Below, one piece after another: positions 2,258 through 57,226 of a DNA stretch of 64,000 nucleotides. A model generated the notes under the pieces. The model had not been told where the DNA came from. It worked only from the letters and a program-made list of their open reading frames with translations, and searched no databases. Numbering within the stretch: the stretch's first letter is position 1; every line of letters starts with the position of its first letter. Location: positions 64,001 to 128,000 of the forward strand of contig CAVPCT010000009.1 of assembly GCA_963702475.1 (NCBI GenBank). Reading direction: 5' to 3'. The translations under genes and the position numbers were made by a program. The DNA is from an uncultured Thermoleophilia bacterium (GTDB lineage: Bacteria > Actinomycetota > Thermoleophilia > UBA2241).

Positions 2258-2977
2258 GTGAGCGAGCAGGACGAGCTGATGGAGCTGTTCGAGCGGTTCT
2301 CGCCGCTCGGGGTCAACGGGCTCAAGCCGTCACAAGCCGCGCGCATCCACCGCGAGCTGCGGGTGTCCATCACCCTCGGCGAGCTGCGACCGGGCGCCGT
2401 GATCGTCGAGGGTGCTCTGGCGGAGCAGTTCGGCGCGTCCAAGACCCCCGTGCGCGAGGCGCTTCGCCAGCTGCAGCACGAAGGGCTCGTGAACGTGCTT
2501 CCCCGCAAGGGGTACGTGGTCAGCTCGTTCGGTCTGGACGATCTTCTGGACGTGTACGCGCTGCGCAGCCTGCTGCAGCCTCCGCTCGCCGCCGCCGCCG
2601 CGCGGAACAGCGACGAGCGGTTGCTGCGCGAGCTCGCCGCCGCCGCGCGGCGGGACTTCGAGGCGACCACGTACCTCGCCGGGCTGGTCGCGGGCGTTGA
2701 GTTCCAGATCGTCATCGCTCAAGCTGCCCGCAACGGTCGCGCGGCGCGCGTGGTCACGGAGCTGATGCTGGAAGCGATGCGCTTCTGGCTCCTCGTGCCA
2801 CCGCCCTCCGGGATGCTCCAGGAGGCGCTCGGCTTCCAGCGCGAGGTCTACGCGGAGCTGCAGGTCGCCATGACGTCCCACGACGAGGAGGCAGCGTCCC
2901 GTGTCATGGCCGACGTCGTGGAGAGGTCGAGGCGGGAGATGGCGTCGCGCATGATGTCGAGGGGACTGACGCCCTGA
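2258..2977 (+). CDS. GntR family transcriptional regulator (FCD domain)
   Basis: wHTH pattern LRPG..IVEGALAEQFGASKTPVREALRQL..EGLV..PRKGY; GTG start inferred. Confidence 0.88.
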   Translation: MSEQDELMELFERFSPLGVNGLKPSQAARIHRELRVSITLGELRPGAVIVEGALAEQFGASKTPVREALRQLQHEGLVNVLPRKGYVVSSFGLDDLLDVYALRSLLQPPLAAAAARNSDERLLRELAAAARRDFEATTYLAGLVAGVEFQIVIAQAARNGRAARVVTELMLEAMRFWLLVPPPSGMLQEALGFQREVYAELQVAMTSHDEEAASRVMADVVERSRREMASRMMSRGLTP

Positions 2978-3037
2978 CCTCGAGCGCCTTGCCCCCCGAC
3001 TGTCTCGGGACGCGCACGTTCGCGAGGTGCTCCCCCG

Positions 3038-4461
3038 TCAGGATGTGCGCGCGGCGGCGGTCGCGGCGAGGCAGGCCTCGATGGTCGCCTCCGCCTCCTC
3101 GGGCAACGTGAACGCCGGCTCGGCGGCCCGCAGCTCTGCGACCCTGGCGCGTAGTCTCGCGACGAGGTCGAGGGCGCCGTCGGCACGCCAGTGGTCGTGC
3201 GGCCACTGGTCCAGCAGTGCGGCGACGCGGTAGTCGCGCACGTGCTGTCGCGTGTAGCGACGGGCGAGGTGGTTGCCGCGCGGACCGACCGCCTCGATCT
3301 CCTCCAGGGCCAGGGTGACTTCATCGACCGGGACGCCCCTCTCGAACGCGTCGAGGTAGTCCACCAGCTCGTCGGTGAAGACGACCGCCTCGTAGGAGCT
3401 CTGCAGGCCCGACTCGAGGAACCCGAGGTCGTGCACCAGCGTGGCCCGTGAGAGAGCGCCGAGCGCCAGAGTGACGGCGGTCTCGGCCGCCCACTGCCCG
3501 TCGAGCAGGTTCGAGTCGGAGGCGCCACCAAGGGTGAACGACGGCAGGCCGTAGAAGCGTGCGAGGTCGCAGCACGCGTGCTGGACTGCGTAGGCCTCTG
3601 GGGCGCAGTAGAGCATGCTCCCACTGCGCAGGTTGAGGGCGCCTTGGGCGACCCCGTAGACGAAGGGGGCGGCGGGACTGGCGAGCTGCGTGATGACGAG
3701 TCCGCTCAGCGTCTCCGCGTTGCCGGTGACGGCGACGGCCGCCCGGGACATGGGCGCCGTCGCCCCGGCCGACGGCGCCGTGGCGTACACCATCGGGATG
3801 CCGAGCTCTGCGCACACGACCAGCTTGTCGACGGCCTCGCGCTCATGGGAGAGCGGCGACGCCGGCATGGCGTAGATGGCGAAGCTCCGCGCCTCGCCGC
3901 AGGCAGCCGCCATCTCGCGCATGGCGGGGAGGATGCGGCCGTCGCGGGCCGACAGGATGACCGGCTTCCTCGAGCCGCGCAGCATGGCCGCGAACTGAGC
4001 CAGGTCGTCGATCTCCTGCGGCACGTCCGCCGGCAGGCCCATGGACATGACGAAGTCGATGTGGGGCAGCTGCTCCGAGACGGCGGCGATGCCGCGGATG
4101 TCGGCGACGGTCGCGCGCCGCCGTTCGCCGGACTCCGGGTCGCTCACATACAGGCAGTCCGACCCGGTGCCGTAGTAGGTGTGCGCGGTGTCCATGACGA
4201 GCGTTGCCGTGGCGCCGCGCGACGGCAGCTCGAACGACTTCGGCGCCGAGGCCAGGGCGTCGGCGACGAGTCCGCGGGGATGCGCGCGCGCACGCCGCTC
4301 ACGTCGGCGCCGGCGTCCTCGAGGAGCTCCAGCGCGCCCTGGTGGTGGACGTCGACGCCCGTCGTGGAGAGGATCCGCAGCGTCGCCTGGTGGACGGCGG
4401 CGCACGTCTCCTCGTCCCACATGCGCAGCGCCGGGTTCTCGTTCGGTCCGGTGGTGGTCAC
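3038..4461 (-). CDS. Trimethylamine methyltransferase (MttB) superfamily protein, non-pyrrolysine; frameshift near 4270
   Basis: N-term VHQATLRILSTTGV; GATAPMS..A, NAETLSGLVITQL, FYGLPSFTLGGASDS, GFLESGLQSSYE, VGPRGNHL; GTGA overlap with the upstream gene. Confidence 0.85.
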
Positions 4462-6183
4462 GATCCGCTCCCCTCTCTGTGGTCCTTTGGCCTCAACCCG
4501 TCGGCGACGGCGCAGCGACGGGGGTCGGCGACCGCGGTGTACGTGCCGTCTCTCCCGTCGCGGGCGATCATCGCGAACGACCCCATGTGGTAGTCGTAGC
4601 CGGCGACCACCGAGACGCGGACCCCGAGGCGGTGCAGGCCCGCTATCGCCTCGGGCGTGAGGCGGTCCTCCACCGTGACCTCCCGGGCCTCGGTCATGGG
4701 GAGCATGCGTGGGGCGTCGACCGCCGCCACGGGATCGAGGCCCAGGTCGAGCGCGTACGCCAGCACCTGCGGGACCGTGCAGTACACGTTGCCGGGGGTC
4801 CCCAGCGAGAGGATGGGCCGGCCGTCCCGGAGGACGAAGGTGTTGCCGACGCAATTGCGCGGTCGCGCGCCCTTGACGAGCGTGGCGTCCAGGGCGCTGG
4901 TGAGCGCTCCGAAAGTGACGTGGCTCCCGACCATGGGGACGCCGCCGACGACCATCCCGGGGATGCCCGAGGCCTGTAGCGTGTCCATCATCTGCACCCA
5001 GTTGCCGGCGGCGTCCACGACGGCCAGCTCGCAGGAGCCGGTGGGCCGGTCCGAGTCCGGCCTGGCGGAGCGCGGACGGCCGCCGCCCGCCGCGAGGGCG
5101 GCGAAGACGTCCCCGCCGGCGTCCGTGGCAAGGCGCAGATGCTCCGTCAGGTCCACGGTGGGGCGTGCAGCGCGGATCATCCTCGCGAGGTGGGCGTGGT
5201 AGGCGTCGTCGAGGACCTCGTCGCGGGGGACCCCGTAGATCGTGTCGTCCTGGGCGTACTCCCAGTGCCGCGCGGCCTGGCGCAGCGCGTGCCCCATCAT
5301 CCAGACGTGCTCGGCGGAGCACGGCTCCACATCGCGGATGCCGAGGTGCTTCAGGACACCCAGGGCGACGCCGATGAACAGGCCCTGCGTCTGCGGCGGG
5401 CCCAGGCTGACGATCTCGGCATCGTGGTGCCGGTAGCGCAGCGGTTCGACCCACCGCGGCGGCGTCTCCGTCATGTGCTCCGGGCGGATGGCCCAGCCCA
5501 TCTCGTTCGCCCTGGCGACGAACTGCCGGGCCCAGGGCCCGGTGATCATGTGGTCCGGCCCCTCCTCGGCGACGCCGCGCAGGGTCTCGGCGAGGCCCTG
5601 TGGGACCATCGTCTCGCCGACGTTGGGGAACCTGCCGTCAGGCTGGAAGAAGTCGCGTCCCTCGGGGAAGTAGGTGATGAACCGGTCGGCGAACACGTAG
5701 ACGCCGTACTCGAAGGTCGACACGGCGTGGCCCCGCTCCGCCCACAGCACGGCGTCCTCGCACAGGTCGGCCCAGGGCAGGGAGCAGAACCGCCGGTGTA
5801 CCTCCTTGAGGGCCGGCATGAAGCCCGGGATGACGGCCGCGGGTGGCACCGCCGCGTACGGGCCGGTGCCGGCGGGCACCGGCTTGAACGGCGGCAGCCC
5901 TGACGGGAAGGTGCCGCTGCCGTCGAGCTGGTGGATCGTGCCGGTCTCTCGCCTCGTAGTAGAGGAACGAGATCAGGCCGGCGTGGTTGGTCATGAACGG
6001 CTCCACGGCGGCCTGGACCATGGCGCCGGCGACGGCGGCGTCGGCGGCGTTGCCGCCTCGTCGGAGCACGTTCACCATCGTCTCGGTCACGATGGCCGAG
6101 TCGGTGCTCACGGCGGCCGTGAGGCCTCGTGGGGACGGCTTCGGACCGGGGTCCACCAGGTAGCGCCGGAGATCGTCGGTCAT
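4458..6183 (-). CDS. Gamma-glutamyltransferase-family Ntn hydrolase (divergent); frameshift near 5945
   Basis: LRRGGNAADAAVA, VEPFMT, VPG-like IPG, ELAVVDAAGN, GTPG, AVDAPR and ADPRR motifs. Confidence 0.88.
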
Positions 6184-6215
6184 GACCGCACCCTCCCTCA
6201 TCGTCAGGCCGTACC

Positions 6216-6251
6216 TTGACAACGCATCTGAAGTATCTTACAAGCATCCGA
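6216..6251 (+). promoter_or_regulatory. Candidate sigma70-type promoter with GCATC(T/C)GA direct repeats
   Basis: TTGACA at 6216-6221, 17 nt spacer, weak -10 TACAAG; GCATCTGA at 6224 and GCATCCGA at 6244 in an AT-richer divergent intergenic region. Confidence 0.45.
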
Positions 6252-6400
6252 CATCGGACGGACGGCGTCCAGTCCTGCGCCGACAGGGCTCTGAGTCCGG
6301 GTGTCGCCCGACCCGGGGGCCGGTCGCCGGAAGCTGGGTGACGCCGGCCGCGGAGCGGAGGAGCGTCCGACCGTCGCGACGCTCGTGAGACGGGAGGCGC

Positions 6401-8499
6401 ATGAGCGGACCCCACGGCAGCTCCGGCGGAGCCGCAGGCCTGTGCGCGTGGAGGCGGGCGGCCTGGAGTACGACGACCCCTTCGTGTGGCTCGAGGAGGA
6501 GAGCGCCGAGACGCTCGCGTGGCAGGCGGCGCAGAACGCCGTCGCCGAGCGCCGCCTGCGGGGTGTCGAGGGCTTCGAGGCCCTCAGGGCGCGACTCGCC
6601 GCCTGCCTCGAGGCCACCTACGTCAGCGCCCCGCATCAGTGTGGCGAGCGCTGGCTGCGCCTGGCGCACGGCGACGACGGCGAGCGCATCGAGACGTGCC
6701 GCAGGGCCGGCCGGTCCGTGGCGCTCCGTGTTCTCGGTCGCCGGCCTCTCCGAGCCGGGCAACACGGCCTCGCTCGACTGGTTCTTCCCCTCGCCCGACG
6801 GCCGTTTCGCGGCGGTGGGGATCTCGTGGGGCGGCGACGAGCAGTGCGTCCTGCGCCTGCTGGACGTCGAGCGCGCGGAGCTTCTCCCCGTCGCCGTGCC
6901 CGACACGTGGTTCGCGCGGGTGGCCTGGCTCCCCGATTCCGGCGGCTGCTACTTCCCGACCGGCGACTTCATGGAGGCCAGGCCCCGCGATCCTCTGCTT
7001 CCTGCGGCCGGGAGACGCCGCGCCGCTGCGGGAATCCCTCGCGGGCGTCGGCGTTCGAGTCGGCGTCGCCGGAGGCGCCCGCCGGCTACCCGCAGGTGTC
7101 CGCGGACGGCCGCTGGCTGACGCTCGCGAGCGAGCGTTCGGCGGCCGCGTCGCCCTCGCCCGGCGACTGCCCGGACGGCGAGTGGTTCGAGGTGCTCGAG
7201 GACACGCATGACCGGCCGGGCCTACGGCTTCGTCGACGGCGACGACTACGTGGCCATCGTCACCGAGGGCGCCCCGCGCGGCAGGCTCGTGCGCGTGCCG
7301 CTGCGAGACCGCCCGCGACCGCACCACGTGGGTCGAGGTGCGTACCGGAGTCCGACGAGGTGCTCGTGAGCGTCGACCTCGTCGCCGGCCACTACGTGGT
7401 CGCAGGGCTCGTCGGCACGGCCGCGCGTCGTCCGCGTCCTCGACCGGCAGGGGGCCCTCGTCGCCGAGGTGCCGCTGCCGGAACGCGGCGTCGTGGCCGA
7501 GCAGGCGTACAGCGGCAACTACAAGATCTTCCCGCCCATGGAGGGCGGCAGCGTCGTCCCGTGCGGCGAGGGCTTCACGTTCACGTTCGCCGCCCCCGGC
7601 AGCGCGCCGGCGACGTACCTCTACGACATCCCGCCGCGCCGTCTGACCCTGCTCGAGCCGCCGGCGGTCGTCCTGGACGACGTCACCGCGGAGCTGCGCG
7701 CGCTTCCGGCCCCGCCGGGCGCGAGGTGACGTACACGCTCGTCTCGCCGGCGGGCGCCCTGCCCGACGGGCCGCGGCCGACCCTCATCTTCGGCTACGGC
7801 GGGTTCAACGCCGCCTTCGTGCCCGACCTATCTCGGCAAGCTCGCTCCCTTCGTGCGAGGCCGGCGGCAACGTCGTCATCCCCAATCTCGCCGGGGGCGG
7901 CGAGTACGGCGAGGAGCAATGGCAGGCGGGTCGCATGGCCGCCAAGCAGGGCACCTTCGACGACCTCTACGCGATCGCCGAGGCTCTGGTCGCCGACGGC
8001 GTCACCACGCGCGGACCAGCTCGGCCTCGTGGGTGAGTCCAACGGCGGACTGCTGCGCGGCCGCGGCCGTCGCGCAGCGGCCCGACCTGTGGGGCGCCGT
8101 GTGCGTCCAGGTCCCGCTCGACGGACATGCTGCGCGCCCCGCTGGACCCGTTCGGCGCGGCCGTCACCATGGAGTACGGCGACCCGTCGTCACCCGACGA
8201 CGCGCCGCGCCTCATGGCCTGGTCGCCGTACCACAACCTGCGCGAGACCGAGTATCCGCCGGTGCTCGTGTGGACCGCGCGAGAACGACTCGCGCTGCGC
8301 TCCGTGGCACGCGCGCAAGTTCGCGGCGCGCCTGCAGCAAGTCGAACCGCTGCGTCCAGCCCCGATCCTGCTGCGCGCCCGCGCCGACGGCGGCCACCTG
8401 AGCGTCGGCACCGACCCCGACCAGGTGGCCGAGTGGCTCGGCTTCCTGATGCCCGCGCTGGGGCTGCCGCTGCCGGGCGCGGCGCGGCAGCAGGCATGA
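6401..8499 (+). CDS. Prolyl oligopeptidase family (S9A) serine peptidase; multiple frameshifts
   Basis: DDPFVWLEE, SPDGR, GYGGFN, GGGEYGE, GESNGG (catalytic Ser), WSPYHN, NDSRC (Asp) and GGH (His), spread across frames. Confidence 0.85.
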
Positions 8500-8523
8500 G
8501 CGGCGGGCGAGTCCGAGGGAGGC

Positions 8524-10032
8524 GTGAGGAGCGACACCACGCCGAGCGTCGCCGACCGGCTCTGGCCTGAGGAGGCGCTCGAGGCCATCCACGCGGCCTC
8601 GCTGGAGGTGCTGGCCCGCGCCGGCGTCCGTGTCGAGTCGGCGCGCGCCCGGGACGTGCTGCTGAGGGCGGGCTGCCGCGAGGGTCCGGACGGGCGGGTG
8701 CTGGTCCCCGAGGGCGTGGTGACGGAGGCCCTGGCGGCGTGTCCGCCGTCGTTCGGGGTGGCCGCCGGCCCCGGCGGCCACGACCTTCTGGTCGACGCCG
8801 CAGCCGGCCCAGACCTACGTGCACAACGTCGGCGACACGCGCGACGCCGTCGACCCGCGCACGGGGGAGACGCGCCGTGCAGAGGTCGCCGACCTGGCGC
8901 GCATGACCCGCGTGCTCCACCACCTCGACAACGTCGACGCTATCGTGCCGCCGCATCAGCCTGCCGGGGTCCCAGACGTGCTCGAGGACCTGTACGCGCT
9001 GCTGGTGATGGCGGCGGAGACGCACAAGCCCGTGATCGGTCCCGGCATCTCCTCGTCGTTCCAGGTGCGCCACCTCCGCGAGATGTCGGTGGCGCGCACC
9101 GGCGCCGACGGGTCGGGCGGCCGTCACGCCTGCCTCTTCGGCTTCTCACCGGTCAGCCCGCTGCGGCTGGGCGGGGAAGTGAGCGAGGCGATGCTGGACG
9201 CGGCGGCGCTGGGCGGCGTCGCCTTCCTGGCGCTGCCGTGCCCGCAGATCGGCACCACGGCGCCGGGCAGCCTCAGCGCCGCCTTGGCGCTGCAGAACGC
9301 CGAGGCGCTCGCGGTGATCGCGCTCCTGGAGTCGGCGCAGCCGGGCGCGCCGGTGCTGTTCGGGGCGCGCCTCTCCGGCATCGACCCCCGGAGCGGCCGC
9401 TTCACCACCGGCACGCCCGAGATGGGCCTGACGGCCGTCGCCGCCGTGCTGCTGGCGCGGTCCTACGGCCTGGCGGCCGACTGTTTCGGCCCCACGAGCT
9501 GCGCGCGGGTGATCGACGCGCAGTTCGGCTGGCAACACGCCGTCAACGCCTTCCTCGGCCTCGTGGCCGCCCCGCGGTTCCTCAGCGGCGCCGCCGACAT
9601 GCACTCCGCCGAGGGCACGTGTCCCGAGTCCGCCGTGCTCGACGACGAGATCCTCGGCGATCTGAGATACGCGTGCGGACCGCGGGCCTTCGATGGAGAG
9701 GCGCTGGACGTGGACGCCATCGTCGACGGCGCGCTGCGCGGCGGGTACCTGGGCGCGAAGCACACCCGCCGCTACCTGCGCGCCGAGCTGCGGCGGCCGG
9801 GCGTGGCCTTCGTCGGTGAGCGGCGCGAGTGGGCGGAGACGGGCTACGCGAGCGTGGTCGACGCGGCGTCGGAGCGGGCCGCGGAGCTCATCGCCAGAGG
9901 TCCGCTGGGTCTGGACGACGGGCTCGCAGCCATGTTCGCCGAGACGATGGCCGCCGCCGCGTCGGAGGCGGGGCTCGGCGAGTGGCCCGACCCCCGCGCG
10001 GTGCTCGCGGCCTCGCGGAGGTGCGCGCGTGA
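8524..10032 (+). CDS. Second MttB superfamily methyltransferase, non-pyrrolysine; frameshift near 8815, 3' end approximate
   Basis: IHAASLEVLARAGV, DPRTGETRRA, SPVSPLR, GTTAPGSLSAAL, NAEALA, GTPE, DAQFG and GYLGAKHT motifs. Confidence 0.85.
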
Positions 10033-11310
10033 GGCCCGGCGACGTTCACGCTGCATCATGTGCACGTCCTCGAGCAGGACGGCGGCTTCTCCGCGGCCAC
10101 GAGCGTCGTCGTCGAGGACGGCGTCGTGACGGCCGTCGCCGCCGGCGCCAGGGGTCCGGCCGGCGCCCCGGAGTACGACCTCAGCGGGCTCTGGCTCATG
10201 CCGGGCGTCTTCGACTGCCACGGCGCACGTGGGCTCTCGACCGTCGACTCCGGCGAGCTCCTGCGGACACCGGAGTCCTACGCCGTCCTGGAGACGGCCG
10301 TGAACCTGCGCAGGACGCTCGACGCCGGGGTGACCTTCGTGCGCGACCTGGGAGCATCGACGCCGGCGTCAAGAGGGCCGTCGCCGACGGGCTCGTGCCC
10401 GGGCCGCGCCTGCAGGTCGCGATCCGCCTGCTCAGCCAGACCGGCGGCCACGGGGACATGTACTCCGGCCGCATAGGCGTCGAGCCCGACCCGGTGTGGC
10501 GCTTCCTGATGACCACCGTGGACGGCGTGGAGAACATGCGCCTCGAGGTCCGCAGGCTGCTGCGCGACGGCGCCGACTGCATCAAGCTGTGTACCAGCGG
10601 GGGCGTCGTTTCGCCCCACGACACGCCGTTCGACGTGAGCTTCACCCCGGAGGAGATCGCCGTCGCCTGGCCGAAGCATCACGGCGACGGCGCCCGGTCG
10701 CGGTGCACGCGACCGGCGGGCGGGGCATCGACAACGCCGTGGCCGCCGGGGTGCGGTCCGTGGAGCACGGCACGCTGCTCACGGAGGAGCAGGCGGCCGC
10801 GATGGCTGCGGCCGGCTGCTGGCTGGTGCCGACCCTGAGCGTGCTCCGCGAGCTCATCGACGATGCGGAAGAGCCGGCCGCCGACGGCTTCGCGCCGTCG
10901 TACGCGCGGCGCAAGATCCTGGAGCCTGCGCGACCGGTTCGGCGACTGCGTGCGCGTGGCGCGTGCGGCCGGCGTTCGCATCGCGACCGGCTGCGACTGG
11001 ATCGACCGGCGCCAGCACGGCAGGAACCTGGAGGAGCTGGCGCTGCTGCACGAGGTGCGGCATGCGAGCCGAGGAGGTCCTTCTGGCGGCCACAGCCGTC
11101 GGCGCCGAGCTGTGCGGCGTCGGCGACCGCTACGGGCGCCTGGCGCCCGGCTGCGTCTTCGACGCCGTGGTGCTCGGCGCCGATCCGTCGGACATGTCGG
11201 TGTTCCGCCGGCGAGAGACGGTGCTCGAGGTGTTCAAGGAAGGTGTCCCCTGCCGGACCGGCGCGGCGCTTCTCGCGGAGCGTCGCGCCGGTGGGGAGGG
11301 GGCGCCGTGA
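10029..11310 (+). CDS. Metal-dependent amidohydrolase (Xaa-Pro dipeptidase/carboxypeptidase-like), copy 1; frameshifts
   Basis: LMPGVFDCH, AGVTFVRDLG, SQTGGHGD, GADCIKLCTSGGV, VHA, SVEHGT, LVPTL and GCD motifs. Confidence 0.85.
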
Positions 11311-11405
11311 GGCGCCGGGGTGGACGCGTCTTGACGCGGGCCACCCGGCGCGGCAGCGGACCGTCGACGGCGGCCGGAGGGTCGCCGTCAATGAAAGGGG
11401 GAGGC

Positions 11406-13118: not shown

Positions 13119-13234
13119 GCTGAGAGCCTGCCGACTGCGGAGCGACCGTCGGCCGGGGCGGCCGGGCTTGGGCCCGGCCGCCCCGGCCGCTGGCGGCTCC
13201 GGTGCGGGGAGGTGCCGGGCCCGCAACGACCTTC

Positions 13235-13955
13235 GCCCGGTGTCCGGTTCGGTGAACGCCTCCACGATGCCGGCCCGGCCGCGGCGAGCGCGCTCTCGCC
13301 GTCGGCGGCCACCCGCAGCGGGACCTCCCCGTCCATCCGCATGCGCAACAGGAGCCGGCCTCCAGCGCCTCGACGGCCCACACCAGGTCCGCCATCGAGC
13401 GTCCCGGACGAGCCTTCGACCGGCGTAGCGCACGATCGCCGCGAGCAGCTCGCCGGTCTCGGCACGTAGCGCTCGTTGGCGGGGCGGTCGCCGGCGGCAA
13501 CGTCCCCCGGCCGCCGCGAGCGCGCCCAGGCCGATCATGAGGAACATGGACGGCTCGGCGAACGACTCGCGGAAGTCCACCTCGATGGTCTCGGCGAGCA
13601 CGGCGCGCCATGGCAGTTTCCGCGCCAGACCGTCAAGTGTCGCGGCGCGCACCCGGTCGATGCCCGGCGTGGCCGCCTGGTCGAGGATACGGGAGAGCAG
13701 GTCCGCCTGGAACTCCGCCGGGTGGGCCAGATGTTGTACACGGCCCCGGTGGTCATGGCGCGCCCGTCCGCGCCGTTCCCGCCGGCCCGGTTCGCCTCTT
13801 CGAGCACGTCCGTGAAAAGGACGTCGGCGAGCGGATTCACGGAGGCGCCGTAGTCGCCGGCCACGCGCGCCTCAACCAGCCGCACCGCCGCCGCCAGCAA
13901 CAGGTCGCGGGTCTCTTCGCGTGTGTCGCCGTCGCGCGACGCCGTGTTTGCCCAT
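13235..13955 (-). CDS. Atypical TetR-like regulator or hypothetical protein; frameshifted, 3' end uncertain
   Basis: GAGGAGG RBS; ETRDLLLAAAVRL...MTTGAVYNIWP resembles a TetR HTH with an insertion between helices. Confidence 0.55.
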
Positions 13956-13988
13956 AGACACCTCCTCGCCGAAAGGCTACCATGCACA

Positions 13989-14005
13989 GCGTAGATTCCC
14001 TACGC
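13989..14005. promoter_or_regulatory. Palindrome GCGTAG-N5-CTACGC, candidate operator
   Basis: Perfect 6-bp inverted repeat between the divergent TetR-like gene and SBP copy 2; minus-strand TTGACA nearby at about 14019-14024. Confidence 0.4.
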
Positions 14006-14114
14006 ATTCGCTCTACGGTGTCAATGCGGTCGCGCGTGTCGCGCGCGACCGCGGTCCAGTCATCAAGAGGGCGAATCGGCGGCGGTGCGCCGGCGCGCAT
14101 CAAGGAGGCGGACA

Positions 14115-15830
14115 CGACCGGAACCCGCATATCTGGCGTAGGCCACGCGCGGCTGGTGGCGGCGCTCGCCCCCGTCGTGCTGGTGGCGGTCGCCGCCACC
14201 GGCTGCGGCGGGACTCCGGGGCGCCGGGACCACCGGCTCGGCCAGCCCCAGCGGCGACCAGCCGGTCTTCAGGCTGGGCACCGTGGGCATATCCTACGAT
14301 TCGCTGAACCCGTTCGTCGGCGTGTACGCCCAGGACTACGCGGCGTGGATGCTGATGTACCCTAACCTCGTCCAGTACACCAACGACCTCGAGGCCCAGC
14401 CCTGATCTTGGCGGAGTCGTGGACCACGAGCGCGGACGGCCTCACGTGCAACGTTCGCACTCAAGTCCGGCGCGGTCTGGACGGACGGTAAGCCCATCAC
14501 GGCCGGCGACGCGGCCTTCACCATCAACACCGTCGTTACGCTGCAGGGTGGCGCGGCCGCCGCGCTCAGCCCGTTCGTTCCCGGCATCGAGAGCGCCACG
14601 GCCGTCGACGACACCACGCTCGTGGTCAAGGTCGGCGCGCCGTCCGCGGCACTCCTCGCCAACCTGTTCCAGCTCCCCATCCTTCCCGAGCAGTTCTGGC
14701 TGTGTACGCCGAGGGCGACGGGGGCAAGCTGAAGACCGCGACCATGGACCCCGCCAAAGAGACGGTCGTCGCGGCGGGACCCTTCACCATCGAGAAGCTG
14801 GACCTCAAGGGCGCGACGATCTTCAAGCGCGTGGACACGTTCTACGGCCCCAAGCCGCTGATGACGGGCTACGGCTTGCAGCTGTTCACCAATGTGGATG
14901 CGGCGATCCAGGCCCTCAAGGCCGGCCATATCGACGCCCTTACCAATTCCCGCCCACGCCCGCCGAGAGCGGTGAAAGCGACGCCCTCTTCAGACCCAGG
15001 GGATCGCGGTAGCATCCCTCCTACCTCGTCGTCAACTATCCGAGTCAACAACAAGAAACACCCTGAGTTGCCCGACCTGAAGGTGCGCCACGCCCTCGAT
15101 ACTGGCCGTCGACCGCGCGGCGCAGATCTACACGGCTTACAGCGACTTTGCCATGCCCGGGGGCTCGTTCTCCTTCCCCCTGTACGCGCCCAAGTTTATG
15201 TCGGCGGAGGGCCCAGTCACCGAGCGCGATGTCGACCAAGGCGAACTAGATCCTCGACGACCTGGGCTTCGCCAAAGGTAGTGACGGCATCCGAGTCGCC
15301 GACGGGGTGAAGATGGAGTACACGGTCCTCGTCGGCACAGCGAACCGGCGCCATCAAAACGCCGCCTTCGGAGAATCCTCGCAGCAGGGCCTCGCCGAAA
15401 TAGGCATCGGCCTGGAGCGAAGGTCCTCGACAACCAGGTCCACGCTCATTATCGCCGCGCCGAGAGCCCTACACGGACTACGACATGACGTTCCTCGATA
15501 TCGGGCCTCACGCCCGACCCGGACAGGTCCGCACTCCTCTCGACCACCACCATGCTCGGCGCGTAACTTCACCGGCTACTCCAATCCCGCAGTACGACGA
15601 CCTCTGACTCAACAGACGAGCGCGATAGACCCCGACAAGCGCAAGGGGATCATCGACCAGATGGCGGCCATGCTCGCAGCAGGACCAGGTCTATCAGGCC
15701 CATCTGCGACATCCAGATGGTCATGGCGGGGAGAAAGGCGTGGCAGGGGGTACCCGACGCGGGCGGCCCCTTCGGCTATACAGATATCGGAACAAGGGCC
15801 CAGTTCAACCGCTCTGGCGGTAAGCAGTAA
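14115..15830 (+). pseudogene. ABC family 5 substrate-binding protein, copy 2; heavily frameshifted (error-rich sequence or decayed)
   Basis: Lipobox ATGC; YDSLNPF, MYPNLV, AGPFTIEKLDLKG, RVDTFYGPKPL and DPDKRKGIIDQMA match copy 1; many indels; start codon not intact. Confidence 0.7.
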
Positions 15831-15875
15831 GGGGCGGCAGGAGAGCCGGACGCAATATGACTCTGCTCGAGGGCG

Positions 15876-16841
15876 TTGAGCAAGCGCCAGAAGTACGTCG
15901 TGCGTCGCGCCGGGAGCGCGCTGCTGATCGCCTTCGTCGCGATCGGCTTCAGCTTCGTGCTGTTCCGCGTGCTCCCGGGCGACGCAGTCTCCGAACTTCG
16001 GTCGCGTCCCCAACATCACCCCCGAGATGTGGGGCCGCCATCCGGCCCAGTTCGGATCGACCGGCCGCTGACCGCGCAGTACGTCCTCTATCTCGGGGAA
16101 GCTGGCCCGCGGCGACCTCGGTGTCTCGCTACCAGACGCAGCAGCCGGTGCTCGGGACCTCCTGACGTCGGTACGCAACACCATTCCCATGTTCCTCGCC
16201 GGCGCCGGTCGCCATACTCGTCGGGACCCTTGTCGGGGTGACCAGCGGGTACCGCCAGGGCAACCCGCGAGACCGCCTCATCACCGGCTCCGCCATGCTC
16301 CTCTATCCGATGCCCATCCAGTGGCTCGCCCTGTTCCTGCTCGTCTGGCCTCGCCGGCTGGTTGCCCAATCCGGCATGAGCGATCCCTACCTCTTCGATG
16401 CCGGGCCCTGGCAGGTGGTCGTCGACCGCGCCCGCCACATGCTGCTGCCGGCGACCTGCGTCGCGCTCATGCTCTTCGGGTCCTTCGCCCTCGTCGTGCG
16501 CAGCTCGCAGCTCGAGGCGCTCGGCGACGACCACGTGCTCACCGCGCGCGCCAAGGGCTATCGCAACCGCCGCATCGTGTGGCGTGAGGCGTTCCGCTCG
16601 GCGATGCTGCCCCTGGTCACCCTCTCTACCCTCACGCTCGGGTGGGTCATCGGCGGGGACCATCCTCGTGGAGTCGGTCTTCACCTGGCCCGGCGTGGGT
16701 CTCGCCACGGTGCAGGCCGTGGCGGCGCGCGACTACCCGCTGCTCCAGGGCATCTTCCTCGTCGTCACCGTCTCCGTCGTGGGCTTCAACTTCCTCGGCG
16801 ACGTGCTGCACTCGGTGCTCGACCCGCGGGTCGTCGAATGA
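15876..16841 (+). CDS. Opp/Dpp ABC transporter permease (OppB-like); frameshifts
   Basis: YVVRR..., VLPGD, EAA-like loop HVLTARAKG, VESVFTWPGVG, RDYPLLQG, LDPRV. Confidence 0.85.
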
Positions 16842-17713
16842 GGCTGGCCCGCCTCCTCCTGCGCCGCCCCACGATCGTCGCCGGGATCGTCATCGTCGCG
16901 CTCTTCACGGCGGTCGCGCTGCTCGCGCCCGTGCTCGAGCCCTACTCGATCACGCGCCCCAGCGGCGCCCCTTCGAGCCGCCCTCGGCGGCCCACTGGAT
17001 GGGCACGGACGACGCCGGCATCGACATGCTACCTCGTAATCGCCGGCGCCCAGAACTCGATGCTCGTTGGCTTCGCCGCCGCGTTCGTCGCGGTACTGAT
17101 CGGCGGGACGCTGGGCATCGTCGCCGGTACAAGGGGAGCTGGGAGAGACCACCGTCACCGGCGTCACCGACTTCTTCCTCGTCATTCCGGGCCTGCCTCT
17201 GATGATCGTCTGGCCGCGCTCTTCGGGCAGACCATCTACCACATCGTGCTCGTGATCGGTCTGCTCAGCTGGATGAGCGTGACCTACGTGGTGCGCGCCC
17301 AGGTGCACACGCTCAAGGAGCGCGGCTTCGTCGCCCGGCGAGGACCTGGGCGCCGGCGATCTCTACATCATCCGGCGCCACATCCTCCCCCACGTGGCCC
17401 CGTTGCTCGTGGCTCAGACGGTGCTCACCGTCGCCTCCGCGGTCTTCTTCGAGGCGGCGCTCGCCTTCATCGGGCTCGGCGACCCACGCGTGTCCTGGGG
17501 CACCATCATCGAGAACGCCTTTCTGCACTCGGCCGTCTCCTCCGGCGCCTGGTGGGCGATCGTGCCGCCCGGCATCTGCATCGCCCTCGTCGTGCTCGGC
17601 GGCTTCCTCGTCGGCCAGGGCGTGGAAGAGGCCATGAACCCGCGCCTCGGCACGCCCACGTCTCGCCGAGCTGTACCGCCGGCGCCGCGCGACGGCGGAG
17701 GACGAGGCGTGAG
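16838..17713 (+). CDS. Opp/Dpp ABC transporter permease (OppC-like); frameshifts
   Basis: PPSAAHWMGTDDAG.D, VVRAQV, RHILPH, EAALAFIGLG, SWG and WWAIVPPG motifs. Confidence 0.85.
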
Positions 17714-18665
17714 CGTGCTCGAGCTCACCGGCCTTCACGTGTGGTTCGACGCCCCGGACGGCCGGTCCGCCCACGCCGTGCGGGGCGTCGACCTCGCGGT
17801 CGGGGCCGGCGAGCGCGTCGGCGTGCTCGGCGAGTCGGGCTGCGGCAAGACCACCCTGATCCTCGCGGCCATGGGCCTGCTGCCCTCGTTCGCGGCGGTC
17901 GCGGGCAGCGTGCTGCCTCGACGGCGTCGAGGTGCTCGCGCGCGGCGAGGAGAGTGCCCGGGCCGTCCGCTGGACGCACGCCGCCATGGTCTTCCAAGGG
18001 GCCATGAGCGCCCTCAACCCGGTCTACCGGGTCGGCAAGCAGATCGCCGACCCCATGGTGGTGCACGGGCAGCGCTCGAAGGCCGAGGCCCGAGCGCGCA
18101 CCGGCGAGCTGCTCGAGCTCGTCGGCCTGCCCGCGAGTGTCGCCCGCCGCTACCCGCACGAGCTCTCGGGCGGCATGCGCCAGCGCGCTGTGATCGCCAT
18201 GGCGCTCGCCTGCGACCCCAAGGTGCTCTTCGCCGATGAGCCCACCACGGCCCTGGACGTCGTCGTGCAGGCGCAGATCGGCGACCTCCTCGCGGAGCTC
18301 GCCGACAGGCTGGGGCTCGCCCTCGTCATGGTCACCCACGACATAGGCATGATCGCCGAGACCAGCGCCCGGGCGGTCGTCATGTACGCCGGCGTGATCG
18401 TCGAGGACGGCCCCACCTTCGATGTGCTCACGGAGCCGCGCCACCCGTACACGCGGCTGCTCCTCGAGGCCACGCCGGTGGTCAACCGCGACCGTCCGCT
18501 CGTCTCCATCCCCGGCACGCCGCCGCGCCTCGACGAAGCCGTCAGCGGCTGCGCCTTCGCCGCCCGCTGCCCGCACGTGTTCGCGGCCTGCTCCGTGCGG
18601 CCGCAGCTGTCTGGCGAGGGCACGCCGCCGCCTGCCACGCCCTGGAGCAGGGGAGGCTCGCGTGA
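17709..18665 (+). CDS. Opp/Dpp ABC transporter ATP-binding protein (OppD-like); frameshifts
   Basis: GESGCGKT, MVFQ, YPHELSGGMRQR, ADEPTTALD, HPYT and GCAFAARC motifs. Confidence 0.9.
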
Positions 18666-19690
18666 GCGCCGGCCGCCTCAGCCCCCGGCGACCACGCGCG
18701 GCCCGGCGACGGCGAGCACCTCCTCGAGGTGCGAGACCTCTCCGTGCACTTCACGCTGAAGCGCTCGTTCTCCGACCGCCTCGCGATCGCGGCGGGCAGG
18801 TGGCCCGCGCCGTCGACGGGGTGTCGCTCGCCCTCGACCGCGGCGAGCTCCTCGCTCTCGTCGGCGAGTCGGGCTCGGGCAAGACCACAACGGCGCTCGC
18901 CGCCCTGCGCCTGCTCGACCCCACTGCCGGCGCCGTGCTGCTCGACGGTCGCGACGTCACCGCGCTGTCGCACCGTGAGCTGCGCCCGCTGCGCCGCCGC
19001 GCCCAGCTCATCCACCAGGACCCGTACGCCGCCCTCGATCCTCGCCTGCGCACCCGTGACCTCATCGCCGAGGCCCTGCGCATCCACGGGCTCGCGCCCT
19101 CGGAGGAAGCGGAGCGCGCGGTGGTCCACGACGCGCTGGAGAAGGTCGGCCTCACCCCGTTGAGACCTTCGCGGAGCGCTACCCGCACCAGCTCTCCGGC
19201 GGTCAGCGCCAGCGTGTGGCCATCGCCGGCAGCCTGGTGCTCGGCCCGTCCTGCTCGTGGCCGACGAGCCCGTCTCTATGCTCGACGTCTCCGTGCGCGC
19301 CGGTATCCTGCAGCTGCTCGACAAGCTCCGCCGCGACGAGGGCGTCGGCATCCTGATGATCACCCACGACCTGGCCACGGCGGCGCACGTCTCCGATCGG
19401 GTCGCGGTCATGTACCACGGCAACCTCGTCGAACTCGGGCCTGCCCGCACCGTCATCGATGCGCCACAGCACCCGTACACGCAGGCGCTCATCTACGCCG
19501 TGCCGCGCGTGCACCGCGAGGAGGAGCGCGTGCGCACCTTGCCCGGCGAACCGCCGGACGCGGCGCACGTGCCGTCCGGTTGCCGCTTCCACCCACGCTG
19601 CCCGCTCTGCGAGGAGCGCTGCCGCAGCGAAGTGCCGACGCTGTTGCCGGCCGCCGGCGAACCGGGCGTGCTGCGTGGCCTGCCATCTGA
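18662..19690 (+). CDS. Opp/Dpp ABC transporter ATP-binding protein (OppF-like); frameshifts
   Basis: [40 protein letters not shown] and GCRFHPRCP motifs. Confidence 0.9.
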
Positions 19691-19739
19691 GATCGGACGG
19701 CGCGGTCGCGCCGCGTCCGTCCGGAGAGGAGCCGCGACC

Positions 19740-20615
19740 GTGAAAGTCTCGATAGGCGACGTGTCACTGTGGTTCGACGTGCTCAACGCCGGGCTGGTCA
19801 CGGACGGCCCGGTCATGCGTGAGAAGCCGGTGGTGCTGGCCCTCCACGGGGGCCCCGGCTTCGACCACACCGACTTCAAGGACATCCTCGAGCCGTTCTT
19901 CGACCTCGCGCAGGTGGTGATGTACGACCACCGCGGCAACGGGCGCAGCGACGACGGCGATGTGGCCCGGTGGAACCTCGAGCAGTGGGGCGACGACGTG
20001 CACGCCTTCTGCGGCGCGCTCGGCATCGAGAAGCCGTTCGTGCTGGGCTGGAGCTTCGGTGGCATGGTCGCCCAGTCGTACGCGTCGCATCACCCGGACG
20101 CGATCGGCGGCCTTATGCTGCTCTCCACCGCCCCGCGCATCTCGGAGGAGCAGTTCGGGCCGGTCTTCGAGCGGGTCGGCGGCCCGGAGGCGCGCGAGAT
20201 CGTGCGGCGCTTCCTCGTGGATCTCGACGAGAGCGCGTTCGACGAGTACACCCGCGTCTGCCTCCCGTACTACACCGTCAAGCGCGATCCCCTGCACCTG
20301 AGCTACCGCGAGACTCGACCCATCATCCGGACCGAGGTGACCCGCCACTTCTTCACCGGGGAGGCCTGGCGGATGGACCTGCGTCCCGGGCTTACCGCGG
20401 TCACATGTCCGACGCTGATCCTCAACGGCGTGCACGACCCCATCACGCCGCCGGAGTGCTCCGACGAGCTCGCGGCGGCGCTGGCCGGCGCGCCGGTGAC
20501 GCGCGTGATCGGACAGGCCAGCTCGCACGACGTACCCGAGGACGAGCCCGAGCTGTTCGAGGGCGCCGTGCGTGACTTCCTGAGCGGCTGTCTGGCGGCG
20601 CGGGAGGCGCAGTGA
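19740..20615 (+). CDS. Alpha/beta hydrolase (proline iminopeptidase-like)
   Basis: HGGPG, DHRGNGRS, nucleophile elbow GWSFGG, Asp (HDP) and His (SSH). Confidence 0.88.
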   Translation: MKVSIGDVSLWFDVLNAGLVTDGPVMREKPVVLALHGGPGFDHTDFKDILEPFFDLAQVVMYDHRGNGRSDDGDVARWNLEQWGDDVHAFCGALGIEKPFVLGWSFGGMVAQSYASHHPDAIGGLMLLSTAPRISEEQFGPVFERVGGPEAREIVRRFLVDLDESAFDEYTRVCLPYYTVKRDPLHLSYRETRPIIRTEVTRHFFTGEAWRMDLRPGLTAVTCPTLILNGVHDPITPPECSDELAAALAGAPVTRVIGQASSHDVPEDEPELFEGAVRDFLSGCLAAREAQ

Positions 20616-21915
20616 GCGCCGCCGCGGGTCCTTCGTTCGCCCTGCGCCACGCGTGTGTGCTTGAACAGGACGGCGGCTTCTCCGGCGAACAGGACGTGGT
20701 CGTCGAGGGCGGCATCGTGACGGAGGTCGGCACCGGCCTTACTGTCCCGGAGGCACGCCGGTCTACGACCTGAGTGGCCTCTGGCTGATGCCCGGCGTCT
20801 TCGACTGCCACGCCCACATGGCGTCCTCCACGGTGGACGAGCGTGAGCTGCTGCGCACGCCGCTCTGGTACGCCACGCTGGAGACGGCCGTGAACCTGCG
20901 CAAGACGCTCGACGCCGGAGTCACCTTCGTGCGGGACGCGGGAGGCACGGACGCCGGCTGCGAAGCGCGCCGTGGAGGATGGCCTCGTGGCCGGCCCACG
21001 GCTGCAGGTCGCGATCGTCCTGCTGAGCCAGACGGGCGGCCACGGCGACACCTACTCCGAGCGCGTGGGCGTGGACCCCGACCCGGTCTTCGGCCATCTC
21101 CTGACCACCGTCGACGGCGTCGACGACATGCGCGTCACGGTGCGGCGCCTGCTGCGCGACGGCGCCGATTGCATCAAGCTCTGCACGAGTGGGGGCGTGG
21201 TCTCCCCCACGACACGCCCTGGGACACGAGCTTCACCACCGAGGAGATCGCCACCGCCGTCTTCGAGGCCGGCCGGCGAGGAAAGCCGGTGATGAGCCAC
21301 GCCATCGCCGGCGAGGGCATCGACCTGGCCGTCGCCTGCGGGATCCGCTCGATCGAGCACGGCACGATGCTGACCGAGCGTCAGGCGGCCGCGATGGCGG
21401 CTGCCGGCTGCTGGCTGGTCCCGACACTGTCCATCGTCAACGACCTGATCGAGACGGCCTCGGCCAAACGGAGCGAGGAGTCGGTGGCGGCCCCTTCGTA
21501 CGCCATCAAGAAGGTGCTGGAGCTGCGCGACTCGTTCGGCGAGTGCGTGCGCATCGCCCGCGACGCCGGCGTGCGTATCGCCACCGGCTGCGACTGGATC
21601 GACCGCCGCCAGCACGGCCGCAACCTCGAGGAGCTCGCGCTGCTCCGCGAGGCCGGTCTCACGGTCGAGGAGACGCTGCTGGCTGCGACCGCGAGCGGGG
21701 CCGAGCTCTGCGGCGTCGGCGACCGCTACGGGCGAGTCGCGCCCGGCTACGTCTTCGACGCGATCGTGCTCGGCTGCGACCCCTCGGACGCGGCGGTCTT
21801 TCGCGACAGGGGGACCGTTCGCGAGGTGTTCAAGGGCGGGGTCGCCTGCCGCAGCGACGGCGACCTTCTTGCGGACGTGGGCCGGCGTCGGCCGAGCCGC
21901 CGGCGGGCGGCCTAA
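20612..21915 (+). CDS. Metal-dependent amidohydrolase, copy 2; frameshifts
   Basis: MPGVFDCHAH, IKLCTSGGV, MSHA, IEHGT and ATGCD motifs; close paralogue of 10029-11310. Confidence 0.88.
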
Positions 21916-22180: not shown

Positions 22181-22249
22181 GGTCAGCTCCGGGCGGCGGA
22201 AGGCTGAGCGTGGGCGACGCTCCGGCCCCGGGAAAGGATGTGAGCGACC

Positions 22250-44610: not shown

Positions 44611-44801
44611 CGTGGGGTCACCGTCCAGATGTGGGGCGTCAGGGCCCGGTTCTACGACGGCGATTGTACCGCGTAGCGGAATGTCACGTCCACAATGCGG
44701 TCCGCTGCACGGAACGGTCGCAACGCCGGCGCGCCCGGCGCGCCCGACGGCCCTAGCCCGAGGCGACGGCACACTGAGGTGTCCTGTCCGGACCCTCCGC
44801 G

Positions 44802-44823
44802 TTGATAGCTCGAGAGCTATCAA
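44802..44823. promoter_or_regulatory. Perfect inverted repeat TTGATAGCTC-GA-GAGCTATCAA, candidate operator
   Basis: 10-bp arms, AT-rich island about 190 nt upstream of AthL-like copy 1. Confidence 0.6.
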
Positions 44824-45046
44824 GACCGAGTGTCCCGCGAGGTACTCCCTCACGCCCACGACGCGTCCGCGTCCGGGCCGTCGCACGGCCCGTGAGCGGC
44901 CCGGCCGGCGTCCGCTCCGGCAGGCTCGGCGCCGACACGCTCGGCGCGCCCGCCGGCAGCCCGTACGCGGCCCGGCCCGCGGCGCCTGAGGCGGCGGCGG
45001 CGCGGGCCGGGCGGAGCGGGCCGGGCAGGGGGAGGGCCCGGCCGCG

Positions 45047-47251: not shown

Positions 47252-47281
47252 TGTCTCTCTCCTGACAGGTCGTGGCCGCCA

Positions 47282-53443: not shown

Positions 53444-53520
53444 TTGCGCGTGAAAACGATACGGGAGTACCATTGTGGGCAAGGGCGCTCCGATATCGCC
53501 GTTGCTATCAGACGATATCA
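53444..53520. promoter_or_regulatory. Divergent control region with CGATA-N6-TACCA (53457-53472) and CGATA-N10-TATCA (53491-53510)
   Basis: AT-richer segment between IclR3 and AthL-like copy 3 containing both palindrome variants. Confidence 0.5.
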
Positions 53521-53612
53521 GCGTTTCCACGCATTGCAAGATGTCTGACGCGAATGTGGCCCGCCCGGCACGTGCGGGCGGCTGCGGTGAAGCCGGTTGG
53601 GGAGGTGCGTGC

Positions 53613-56147: not shown

Positions 56148-56151
56148 TCCG

Positions 56152-57062: not shown

Positions 57063-57226
57063 TGCCTTCGCGGCCGATGACCCCCGATCTCACGACGGAG
57101 CTGCGTGCAACTCCGCGCCCAGGGCGCGCGCCGAAGCGCCGATGTGCTTGAGCGTGGGGTTGCCGTGCCGGCTCTCGATGCGTCAGCGTGTGCTCGTCGG
57201 GAGGACCGCGTCGTATGATGAATACC

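Follow-up and report, generated by a model that had tools for sequence, protein, structure and literature searches.

The stretch of DNA analysed here, 64,000 nucleotides of contig CAVPCT010000009.1 from an uncultured Thermoleophilia bacterium (the window, with a G+C content of about 70%), contains a gene cluster which, when read through its frame breaks, encodes an Opp/Dpp-type importer with two family-5 solute-binding proteins (SBP5), named SBP1 and SBP2, five hydrolases (a GGT-like enzyme, an S9 peptidase, two amidohydrolases and an alpha/beta hydrolase) and two distant MttB-family methyltransferases without pyrrolysine (non-Pyl), MttB1 and MttB2. Our preferred explanation, held with modest confidence, is that this is a real, lineage-specific catabolic cluster of a high-G+C, probably Gram-positive genome, and that its deposited sequence carries about 40 single-base errors. 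The conserved functional core would be an MttB-family enzyme together with the SBP5/Opp importer: the Opp-type system with its two binding proteins would import one or more small nitrogenous compounds, the methylated-amine substrate, and the MttB-family enzymes would hand the N-methyl group on to a corrinoid protein whose gene lies in another part of the genome. The five hydrolases would be lineage-specific additions, either releasing the methylated amine from a conjugate or feeding on co-imported peptides.

The proposed core was compared with related loci. A genome collection scanned once with 12 aligned MttB1 relatives gave 75 loci (50-58% identity), nearly all of them from metagenome-assembled genomes of Thermoleophilia or Actinomycetota, the window's own genome not being among them, and 20 pieces of the window were compared with these loci by tblastn over up to 10 kb on each side. 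Of the 75 loci, 19 encoded an SBP1-like protein (24-36% identical), in 17 cases no more than 3 kb from the MttB gene; in nine loci it started 190-490 nt downstream of that gene on the same strand. In contrast, relatives of the GGT-like gene, the S9 peptidase (each of five pieces), both amidohydrolases and the alpha/beta hydrolase were detected in none of the 75 loci. The aldehyde:ferredoxin-oxidoreductase (AFOR) gene that lies next to the cluster was likewise found in none of them, a GntR relative was present in one, and the MttB2 piece matched just the MttB genes belonging to each locus, at no more than 32% identity. As judged from gene content, the link between MttB and the SBP5/Opp importer recurs, whereas the link with the hydrolases is not conserved. 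The original prediction had proposed that N-methylated peptides or amides are imported, hydrolysed and then demethylated, and had named a lack of conserved MttB-hydrolase co-occurrence as the outcome that would speak against it; that outcome is largely what we found for each of the hydrolase families. The link to the importer held up; the pathway as a whole is largely unsupported.

Pfam was also applied to 138 neighbouring open reading frames (ORFs) at distances of up to about 3.5 kb. They came from 33 loci; full flanks were available for 37, of which L057, L073, L074 and L075 were omitted. An SBP5 was present in six of the 33 loci, further MttB-family ORFs in 19, a divergent BetI-type TetR regulator in 13 and a B12-binding corrinoid protein in seven, and L051, L064 and L067 carried a RACo-type corrinoid activase. 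Other neighbours were scattered (M20 peptidase, arginase-family and agmatine-deiminase-type enzymes, aminotransferases and fatty-acid genes). Full Opp systems stood beside an MttB gene in L001, L043 and L048. L001 resembles the window most closely: it bears MttB, SBP5 and CocE/NonD-family hydrolase genes on one strand and, divergently, genes for an MttB1-like protein, a corrinoid protein, SBP5, OppB and OppC permeases, a fused OppDF, a DAO-type oxidase (an amine-oxidase-like flavoprotein) and a further MttB. Both L043 and L048 contained genes for SBP5, OppBC, OppDF, an enolase-superfamily enzyme, an OCD-family enzyme, a divergent GntR regulator, MttB and SBP5. The enolase superfamily includes HpbD. 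A proline-betaine reading of these two loci is a lead, HpbD being described as a proline betaine racemase in PMC3950512; in the Paracoccus pathway for proline betaine reported there, demethylation is carried out by Rieske and flavin enzymes and not by MttB. Searches with NCBIfam among the neighbours of L001, L002, L035, L043, L048 and L063 gave no specific name above the cut-off except CocE/NonD.

The closest relatives of MttB1, MttB2 and the GGT-like protein (67-90% identity) were metagenome proteins. When the tables of relatives were compared by eye via contig sizes, no contig of at least 10 kb was common to the GGT relatives and to those of MttB1 or MttB2. A relative of MttB1 (P0006, 76%) and one of MttB2 (P0245, 79%) both lay on a 51,878-bp contig, as judged from the equal size alone, and in at least one relative the two methyltransferase genes are probably found together. 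A contig size of 4,296 bp was common to P0132 (a GGT relative) and P0244 (an MttB2 relative), a match that may be due to chance, as about 0.6 coincidences are expected among short contigs by a rough estimate. Searching plasmids by tblastn with MttB1-like and MttB2-like queries returned just relatives of at most 30% identity (Sinorhizobium, Leisingera and others), in an uninformative context.

Pyl-type genes were also observed in the related loci. Split MttB ORFs occurred in L003, L024, L026, L037, L038, L041 and L044, a dimethylamine methyltransferase gene was similarly split at L024:12267-14249, and LAM_C/radical-SAM genes (PylB-like or KamA-like) adjoined the RACo-type activases at about 12.7-16.1 kb in L051, L064 and L067. 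No tRNA was detected by ARAGORN in the 10 related loci scanned, and a literature search on pyrrolysine in Thermoleophilia returned nothing related among the titles.

In the window, every gene from MttB1 through amidohydrolase 2 was split between frames, with the exception of the alpha/beta hydrolase gene, and the view that these genes are intact as deposited had to be abandoned. The matches to Pfam profiles resumed in another frame: positions 2-83 and 81-490 of the MTTB profile fell in two minus-strand frames of MttB1, positions 2-242 and 264-360 of SBP_bac_5 fell in two plus-strand frames, and ABC_tran domains were cut in two. The phase of third-position GC switched repeatedly within genes. 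The genes were identified from third-position GC and from the matches of stop-to-stop frame pieces in Pfam and NCBIfam, and the read-through was the path that maximised a codon-usage score with a penalty for each frame change and a heavier one for each stop. This read-through required 49 frame corrections between 4272 and 22555, of which 42 were in the coding parts of the cluster (between 4272 and 21200), five in a non-coding stretch, where they are meaningless, and two in AFOR; the density was about 2.5 frame errors per kb. The practical lesson is that this apparently intact operon is an error-rich stretch, whose sequence must be corrected before any pathway is deduced from it.

Close relatives allowed four breaks to be placed exactly, and all of them were changes of +1 or -1 nt: a deletion at about 4272 in MttB1, where a C is missing from GACCTC and intact relatives match in two frames by tblastn, an insertion at about 5947-5952 in the GGT-like gene, in AGAG, and in MttB2 an insertion at about 8800, where a G has been added between GCA and CCG, and a deletion at about 10010-10020 that masks the natural TGA at 10030-10032. 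The gene calls of the deposited record, a 370,007-bp contig, were themselves truncated, MttB1 having 385 aa against 463-475 aa in its relatives and the GGT-like protein 473 aa against 564-574 aa. Six control genes and 17 other segments of the window needed no corrections. Similar breaks were found outside the cluster at 36258, 39.9-41.7 kb, 46.4-48.3 kb and 52.6-58.4 kb, where they hit unrelated genes (LivK, Liv-type ABC genes, NrfD-like, IclR, molybdenum oxidoreductases, a ferredoxin-like subunit, HEPN and GntR), and the blocks 22.6-36.2 kb and 58.9-63.6 kb were free of them.

These frame breaks probably reflect errors of assembly or sequencing, or at most very recent events, rather than decay, to judge by the pattern that they leave. 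Not one stop codon was read through, there was no tight +1/-1 pair suggestive of a dodged nonsense codon, and two apparent in-frame stops in the S9 gene were bypassed by switching frame for 80-100 nt, with a plausible protein sequence in these parts. The read-through products aligned without gaps to their relatives, with identities of 88.5% over 451 aa for MttB1 (against P0002), 87.5% over 574 of 574 aa for the GGT-like protein (P0122) and 86.8% over 494 aa for MttB2 (P0241). Among the columns that were invariant in 38-39 relatives of each protein, the window copies violated 1 of 96 in MttB1, none of 208 in the GGT-like protein and none of 92 in MttB2 (1 of 396 in total), which is no worse than the relatives did when each was omitted in turn (median 0-2, maximum 7-9). 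Although it has about five breaks per kb, the S9 gene kept its prolyl-oligopeptidase-type N-terminal signature and the motifs of Ser, Asp and His, codon bias was retained in the broken genes, and the error-rich patch started inside MttB1 and stopped inside AFOR. The marks of a decaying pseudogene, that is nonsense codons, gaps (in the three genes aligned) and relaxed invariant residues, were thus absent. If the errors lie in the deposited sequence, the organism itself most likely encodes intact proteins.

True pseudogenisation, by which a catabolic island would have been inactivated recently in this lineage through many small indels, is unlikely. It would agree with the presence of the breaks in the deposited record itself, with their concentration in accessory catabolic and transport genes, the rib genes and several CoA-metabolism genes being intact, and with the position of the four exactly placed indels outside homopolymers. 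In natural decay, however, substitutions far outnumber indels, and about 40 indels would bring hundreds of substitutions, some of them nonsense. About 40 frame-changing indels with no nonsense codon and with codon bias preserved, the near absence of changed invariant residues in gap-free alignments, catalytic motifs kept in the S9 gene and patch edges that fall within genes all argue against it and for the artefact reading, on which the following description of the genes is based. Their positions are given in Table 1.

Table 1. Features of the cluster and its surroundings, with the number of frame corrections that each needs
Feature	Position	Strand	Basis and remarks	Frame corrections
GntR/FCD regulator	2258..2977	+	Pfam GntR 61 bits, FCD 33 bits; convergent with MttB1; intact	0
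MttB1, non-Pyl MttB-superfamily methyltransferase	3038..4461	-	474 aa read through; Pfam MTTB 204 bits	1
GGT-family Ntn-hydrolase-like gene	4458..6183	-	574 aa read through; Pfam G_glu_transpept 169 bits	1
Divergent spacer between the two operons, ~250 nt	6184..6439	.	coding phase absent at 6215-6416	
S9A (prolyl-oligopeptidase-type) serine peptidase	~6440..8499	+	~685 aa read through; Peptidase_S9_N and Peptidase_S9 on separate frame pieces	10 by the codon model; at least 11 by eye (three-frame reading)
MttB2, second non-Pyl MttB-superfamily gene	8524..10032	+	502 aa; Pfam MTTB 139 bits	1 by the codon model; a second near the 3' end from relatives
Amidohydrolase 1 (COG1228-like)	~10060..11330	+	Pfam Amidohydro_1 on two frame pieces; NF051886 on three	5
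SBP1, family-5 solute-binding lipoprotein, lipobox LAGC	~11420..13123	+	SBP_bac_5 172 bits and 37 bits in a second frame; about 3-4 corrections overall	4
Hairpin directly after the SBP1 stop	13127..13212	+	41-nt arms, 78% complementary	
Stretch of ~0.9 kb, 73% GC	13213..14129	.	without coding periodicity or family match	
SBP2, family-5 solute-binding lipoprotein, lipobox ATGC	~14130..15880	+	SBP_bac_5 on two frame pieces; most damaged transporter gene	at least 7 (the model missed more)
OppB- and OppC-type permeases	~15880..17700	+	BPD_transp_1, BPD_transp_1_N and OppC_N on several frame pieces	OppB 3; OppC 3
OppD- and OppF-type ATPases with oligo_HPY C-terminal domains	~17700..19640	+	Pfam ABC_tran, oligo_HPY; NCBIfam	OppD 2; OppF 2
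Alpha/beta hydrolase (S33-like), single frame	~19740..20615	+	Abhydrolase_1 79 bits, Hydrolase_4 67 bits	0
Amidohydrolase 2 (COG1228-like)	~20650..21915	+	Pfam Amidohydro_1 96 bits	3
AFOR neighbour, outside the cluster	22244..23962	+	alternative frame matches AFOR_N positions 46-104	2, compensating, at ~22406 and ~22555, then clean

Gene families and gene order agreed with those proposed originally, according to Pfam and NCBIfam, and so did the arrangement in two divergent operons, one with the GGT-like gene and MttB1 on the minus strand and the other running from the S9 gene to amidohydrolase 2 on the plus strand. The stop codon TGA of the GGT-like gene (4460-4458) and the start codon GTG of MttB1 (4461-4459) overlap as GTGA, and this pair is therefore taken to be translationally linked. 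The same linkage had been claimed for S9 and MttB2; there the S9 stop (8497-8499) and the MttB2 GTG (8524), which is preceded by a Shine-Dalgarno-like gagggagg, are separated by a spacing of 24 nt, close and without overlap. The gap between MttB2 and amidohydrolase 1 was about 28 nt on the same strand. The two binding proteins are paralogues with 45% identity and the two amidohydrolases are paralogues with 72%, and these degrees of similarity point to two recent duplications in the cluster; MttB1 and MttB2 are only 29% identical. The oligo_HPY C-terminus of OppF and the alpha/beta hydrolase were observed to share an open frame (19164-20612, plus strand) with no intervening stop, which is either a fusion or the effect of a stop masked by an error, as in MttB2. 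In the region of 13.1-14.25 kb, tblastx gave just short, composition-prone matches, and no match at gathering thresholds to Rfam was obtained across the window.

The importer contains, in order, all the parts of an Opp/Dpp-type system, namely two SBP5s, two BPD_transp_1 permeases and two oligo_HPY ATPases, and every one of its genes needs two to seven frame corrections. No binding protein or permease reached an equivalog cut-off of NCBIfam, the best scores being 84 bits against 393 for NikA and 74 against 650 for Opp4A.

MttB1 and MttB2 both belong to the MttB superfamily (PF06253, cut-off 25 bits), with 204 bits over profile positions 81-490 plus 34 bits over 2-83 in a second frame for MttB1, and 139 bits over 129-473 plus 28 bits over 34-101 in a second frame for MttB2. 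Neither reached the equivalog model of the Pyl-containing MttB (TIGR02369; 265 and 157 bits, respectively, against 525), and no in-frame TAG or other stop was found in either read-through. At the relevant position MttB1 reads PSFTLGGASDS, with Ala at the Pyl position and Phe at the position of R312 of MtgB; in the split MttB paralogues of the related loci, TAG was found at PS[FY]VAGL-TAG-xDSK in eight of eight. For both proteins the nearest solved structure was MtgB (175 bits for MttB1-like and 97 bits for MttB2-like). According to PMC13080624, the glycine betaine site of MtgB is formed by Y97 and F356, through cation-pi contacts, and by R312 and H348, which hold the carboxylate, and the Arg equivalent to R312 is conserved in MtcB, MtpB, MthB and MtyB. 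By alignment to chain 9yce_A, whose numbering is the native one minus 2, the residues at Y97, R312, H348 and F356 were S, F, H and G in MttB1 (one of four kept) and D, D, S and A in MttB2 (none kept), and the copies in the window carried the same substrate-site motifs as their respective clades. Neither protein thus has the full set of four residues that defines MtgB-type glycine betaine enzymes, and the Arg shared by the characterised members acting on acidic quaternary amines, as that source describes them, is Phe in MttB1 and Asp in MttB2.

The TIGR02369 scores and the site residues together place both proteins in the superfamily and outside every characterised specificity group. Both are non-Pyl enzymes, and they differ at substrate-binding positions from every characterised betaine enzyme covered by that published description. 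The substrate of MttB1 and MttB2 would accordingly be something other than glycine betaine, as read from these residues, and that of MttB1 is probably not an acidic betaine at all. 

Corrinoid proteins are usual near MttB genes, as the original prediction noted, and the window departs from this: no corrinoid protein, methyl-acceptor methyltransferase or activase is encoded in the 64 kb, the BetI-type regulator common among the relatives is missing too, and no nearby-encoded corrinoid methyltransferase system can be recognised there. A precedent for the lack of a corrinoid gene in the vicinity is offered by Ruegeria pomeroyi, in which mtgB, mtgC and mtgD are dispersed in the genome according to PMC12478193.

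Several of these observations weigh against our explanation. The searches found no B12-binding, URO-D/MT2, pterin-binding, RamA or RACo domain and no cobalamin riboswitch in the 64 kb, and relatives often hold corrinoid partners adjacent to MttB (a corrinoid protein in 7 of 33 loci and RACo in three loci). The SBP5 relatives are only 24-36% identical to SBP1, so that the same transporter function can be assumed at the family level only. The mapping of substrate-site residues depends on alignments at about 25-30% identity, and single-residue calls at this level carry some risk. Regarding the frame breaks, the artefact reading was deduced from the assembled sequence and not from reads, the placed indels are not confined to homopolymers, and most of the control genes had also served to train the codon model.

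Among the hydrolases, the GGT-like protein scored 169 bits with PF01019 (cut-off 27) and fell short of TIGR00066 (132 against 358). In alignments with 4y23 and 2nlz a Ser-Cys pair falls at the position of the Thr nucleophile, where canonical GGTs have Thr-Thr, so that the Thr of typical members is missing; this pair lies in the GSCELA motif at residue 382 of the read-through, and the same motif was present in 120 of the 120 relatives listed. The nearest structure was the 'cephalosporin acylase' 2nlz (107 bits), and many relatives at about 70% identity carry Steroidobacteraceae or Nevskiaceae names. The GGT-like protein and its relatives appear from these alignments to be a distinct Ser-Cys subclade of the GGT family. 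The S9 peptidase matched PF02897 (N-terminal beta-propeller) with 35 bits against a cut-off of 24 and PF00326 (catalytic domain) with 33 bits against 22.6, the two matches falling on different frame pieces, as expected of S9A domains, and its three-frame translation contains GESNGG, ENDSRC and GGH, which we take to be the motifs of the Ser-Asp-His triad.

The closest counterparts of the two amidohydrolases are prolidases, carboxypeptidases and amide hydrolases of the COG1228 type. The Xaa-Pro dipeptidase model NF051886 (cut-off 500) gave 109 bits with amidohydrolase 2 and 39, 33 and 20 bits with the pieces of amidohydrolase 1, and the nearest PDB entries of amidohydrolase 2 were 3mkv, 3feq/3n2c ('prolidase'), LlADH and ochratoxinase. 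The alpha/beta hydrolase did not reach the models of the S33 proline iminopeptidase (TIGR01250 and related; 77.5 bits against 167.65) and scored higher with 3-oxoadipate enol-lactonase (94 bits against a cut-off of 256); in the PDB an esterase and a proline iminopeptidase tied at about 60 bits. Its read-through contains HGGPG, presumably a diagnostic motif. The description of this protein as iminopeptidase-like is consequently one of two equally weak readings. In NCBIfam, none of the hydrolases of the cluster reached a proline-specific equivalog cut-off. It is correct, as had been stated, that the S9, amidohydrolase and S33 families include proline-directed members, but these scores do not show the proteins of the cluster to be proline-directed enzymes.

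Functional coupling of the GGT-like enzyme with MttB1, suggested by their stop/start overlap, and of S9 with MttB2, suggested by their common operon, is in each case plausible and unproven; the case for release of a methylated amine from a conjugate is strongest for the GGT-like enzyme and MttB1. We regard as doubtful the more ambitious, integrated pathway in which the Opp system takes up N-methylated peptides or amides that perhaps contain a methylproline-type unit, the hydrolases cleave them, and MttB1 or MttB2 demethylates the released unit. The GTGA overlap, the arrangement of S9, MttB2 and amidohydrolase 1 on one strand, spaced by 24 and about 28 nt, the 51,878-bp contig size common to P0006 and P0245 and the combination of MttBs, SBP5s, Opp and a CocE/NonD hydrolase in L001 are all consistent with such a pathway, as are the prolidases among the relatives of the amidohydrolases and the enolase-superfamily and OCD-family enzymes beside MttB, SBP5 and Opp in L043 and L048, in view of what PMC3950512 says of HpbD. 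However, the hydrolases have no relatives in the 75 related loci, no contig of at least 10 kb is common to the GGT relatives and those of the MttBs, and no hydrolase reaches a proline-specific cut-off. The S9A group also holds oligopeptidase B, which is not proline-directed. The carboxylate-binding Arg that all characterised members have, including MtpB, is replaced in both MttBs, going by the description in PMC13080624.

The opposite possibility, that the neighbours are unrelated, the Opp system and the hydrolases scavenging ordinary peptides and the MttBs being placed there by chance and acting on free methylated amines taken up otherwise, is very unlikely. The non-conserved co-occurrence of the hydrolases is as it would predict, and the same holds for the number and varied contexts of MttB paralogues (further MttBs in 19 of 33 loci, beside aminotransferases, arginase-family enzymes and fatty-acid genes), but the overlap of the GGT-like gene and MttB1, the position of MttB2 embedded between S9 and the amidohydrolase gene on one strand and the adjacency of MttB and SBP5 in 17 of 75 loci speak against it.

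Our preferred explanation, a conserved MttB and SBP5/Opp core with added hydrolases, can be extended. If the breaks are artefactual and the coupling is functional, a methylated amine might be imported via SBP5/Opp as a peptide-like or gamma-glutamyl/acyl conjugate, hydrolysed and demethylated, with MttB1, which keeps the Phe of the Pyl-type trimethylamine methyltransferase and has Ala at the Pyl site, acting on a non-acidic methylamine freed by the Ser-nucleophile GGT-like enzyme that is co-translated with it; we consider this extension quite unlikely as it stands. If true, it would join Ntn-type and serine/metallo amidases directly to two cobalamin-dependent MttBs without the carboxylate-binding Arg.

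Some observations were made elsewhere in the window. A molybdopterin oxidoreductase gene (45050-47281, minus strand) is split by an in-frame TGA at 46412-46414, both ORFs being in the same frame. The codon model prefers two frame corrections in it, at 46400 and 46501; these explain the TGA, and selenocysteine at this codon was set aside, since the context is also unlike the selenocysteine site of formate dehydrogenases. Three paralogous AhtL-like (pyrogallol-hydroxytransferase large-subunit-like) molybdopterin oxidoreductases lie at 42001-45150 (minus strand), 49891-~52430 (minus) and 53454-56152 (plus), two of them with Fer4_11/CarboxypepD_reg partner subunits and IclR regulators nearby. A nucleotidyltransferase/HEPN pair (57188-57950, plus strand) resembles a toxin-antitoxin module, and its HEPN part needs two frame corrections.

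For the very large non-Pyl MttB superfamily only a handful of substrates are known, all of them quaternary amines. Two features may guide the search for further substrates: MttB1-clade genes in Thermoleophilia-type genomes stand repeatedly beside family-5 (peptide/opine-type) binding proteins, and both MttBs of the window lack the Arg common to all characterised members. A literature search gave, among the papers listed, no title or abstract linking MttB genes to Opp systems or peptidases.

Among known systems, that of MtgB from Desulfitobacterium hafniense (MtgB, a corrinoid protein, MtgA and a RamA homologue) shares with the cluster the superfamily, the TIM-barrel and the lack of Pyl. It differs in that only one of the four betaine residues is kept in MttB1 and none in MttB2, and in that no corrinoid protein, MtgA or RamA is a neighbour of these genes. 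The Eubacterium limosum enzymes MtpB (proline betaine), MtcB (carnitine), MtyB (gamma-butyrobetaine) and MthB (phosphocholine) are likewise non-Pyl and demethylate quaternary amines onto a corrinoid protein; compared via their published description only (PMC13080624), they keep the R312-equivalent Arg, in contrast to the Phe of MttB1 and the Asp of MttB2. With the Pyl-type trimethylamine methyltransferase MttB1 shares the PSF motif that precedes the Pyl site in the TAG-containing paralogues, but it has no in-frame TAG and bears Ala at the Pyl position. The MtgBCD(E) system of R. pomeroyi, as described in PMC12478193, is an example of an MttB-family enzyme in an aerobe with dispersible partner genes; it acts on glycine betaine, whose binding residues the MttBs of the cluster lack. 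The cluster has the full set of parts of the Opp/Dpp/Nik-type importers and reaches none of their equivalog cut-offs, and the COG1228 enzymes (the 3feq/3n2c prolidase, Cc2672, ochratoxinase and LlADH) provide the nearest structures and NCBIfam model for its amidohydrolases, at 109 bits against 500. Taken together, the MttBs of the cluster are further members of a very numerous non-Pyl kind, in an unusual but poorly conserved neighbourhood.

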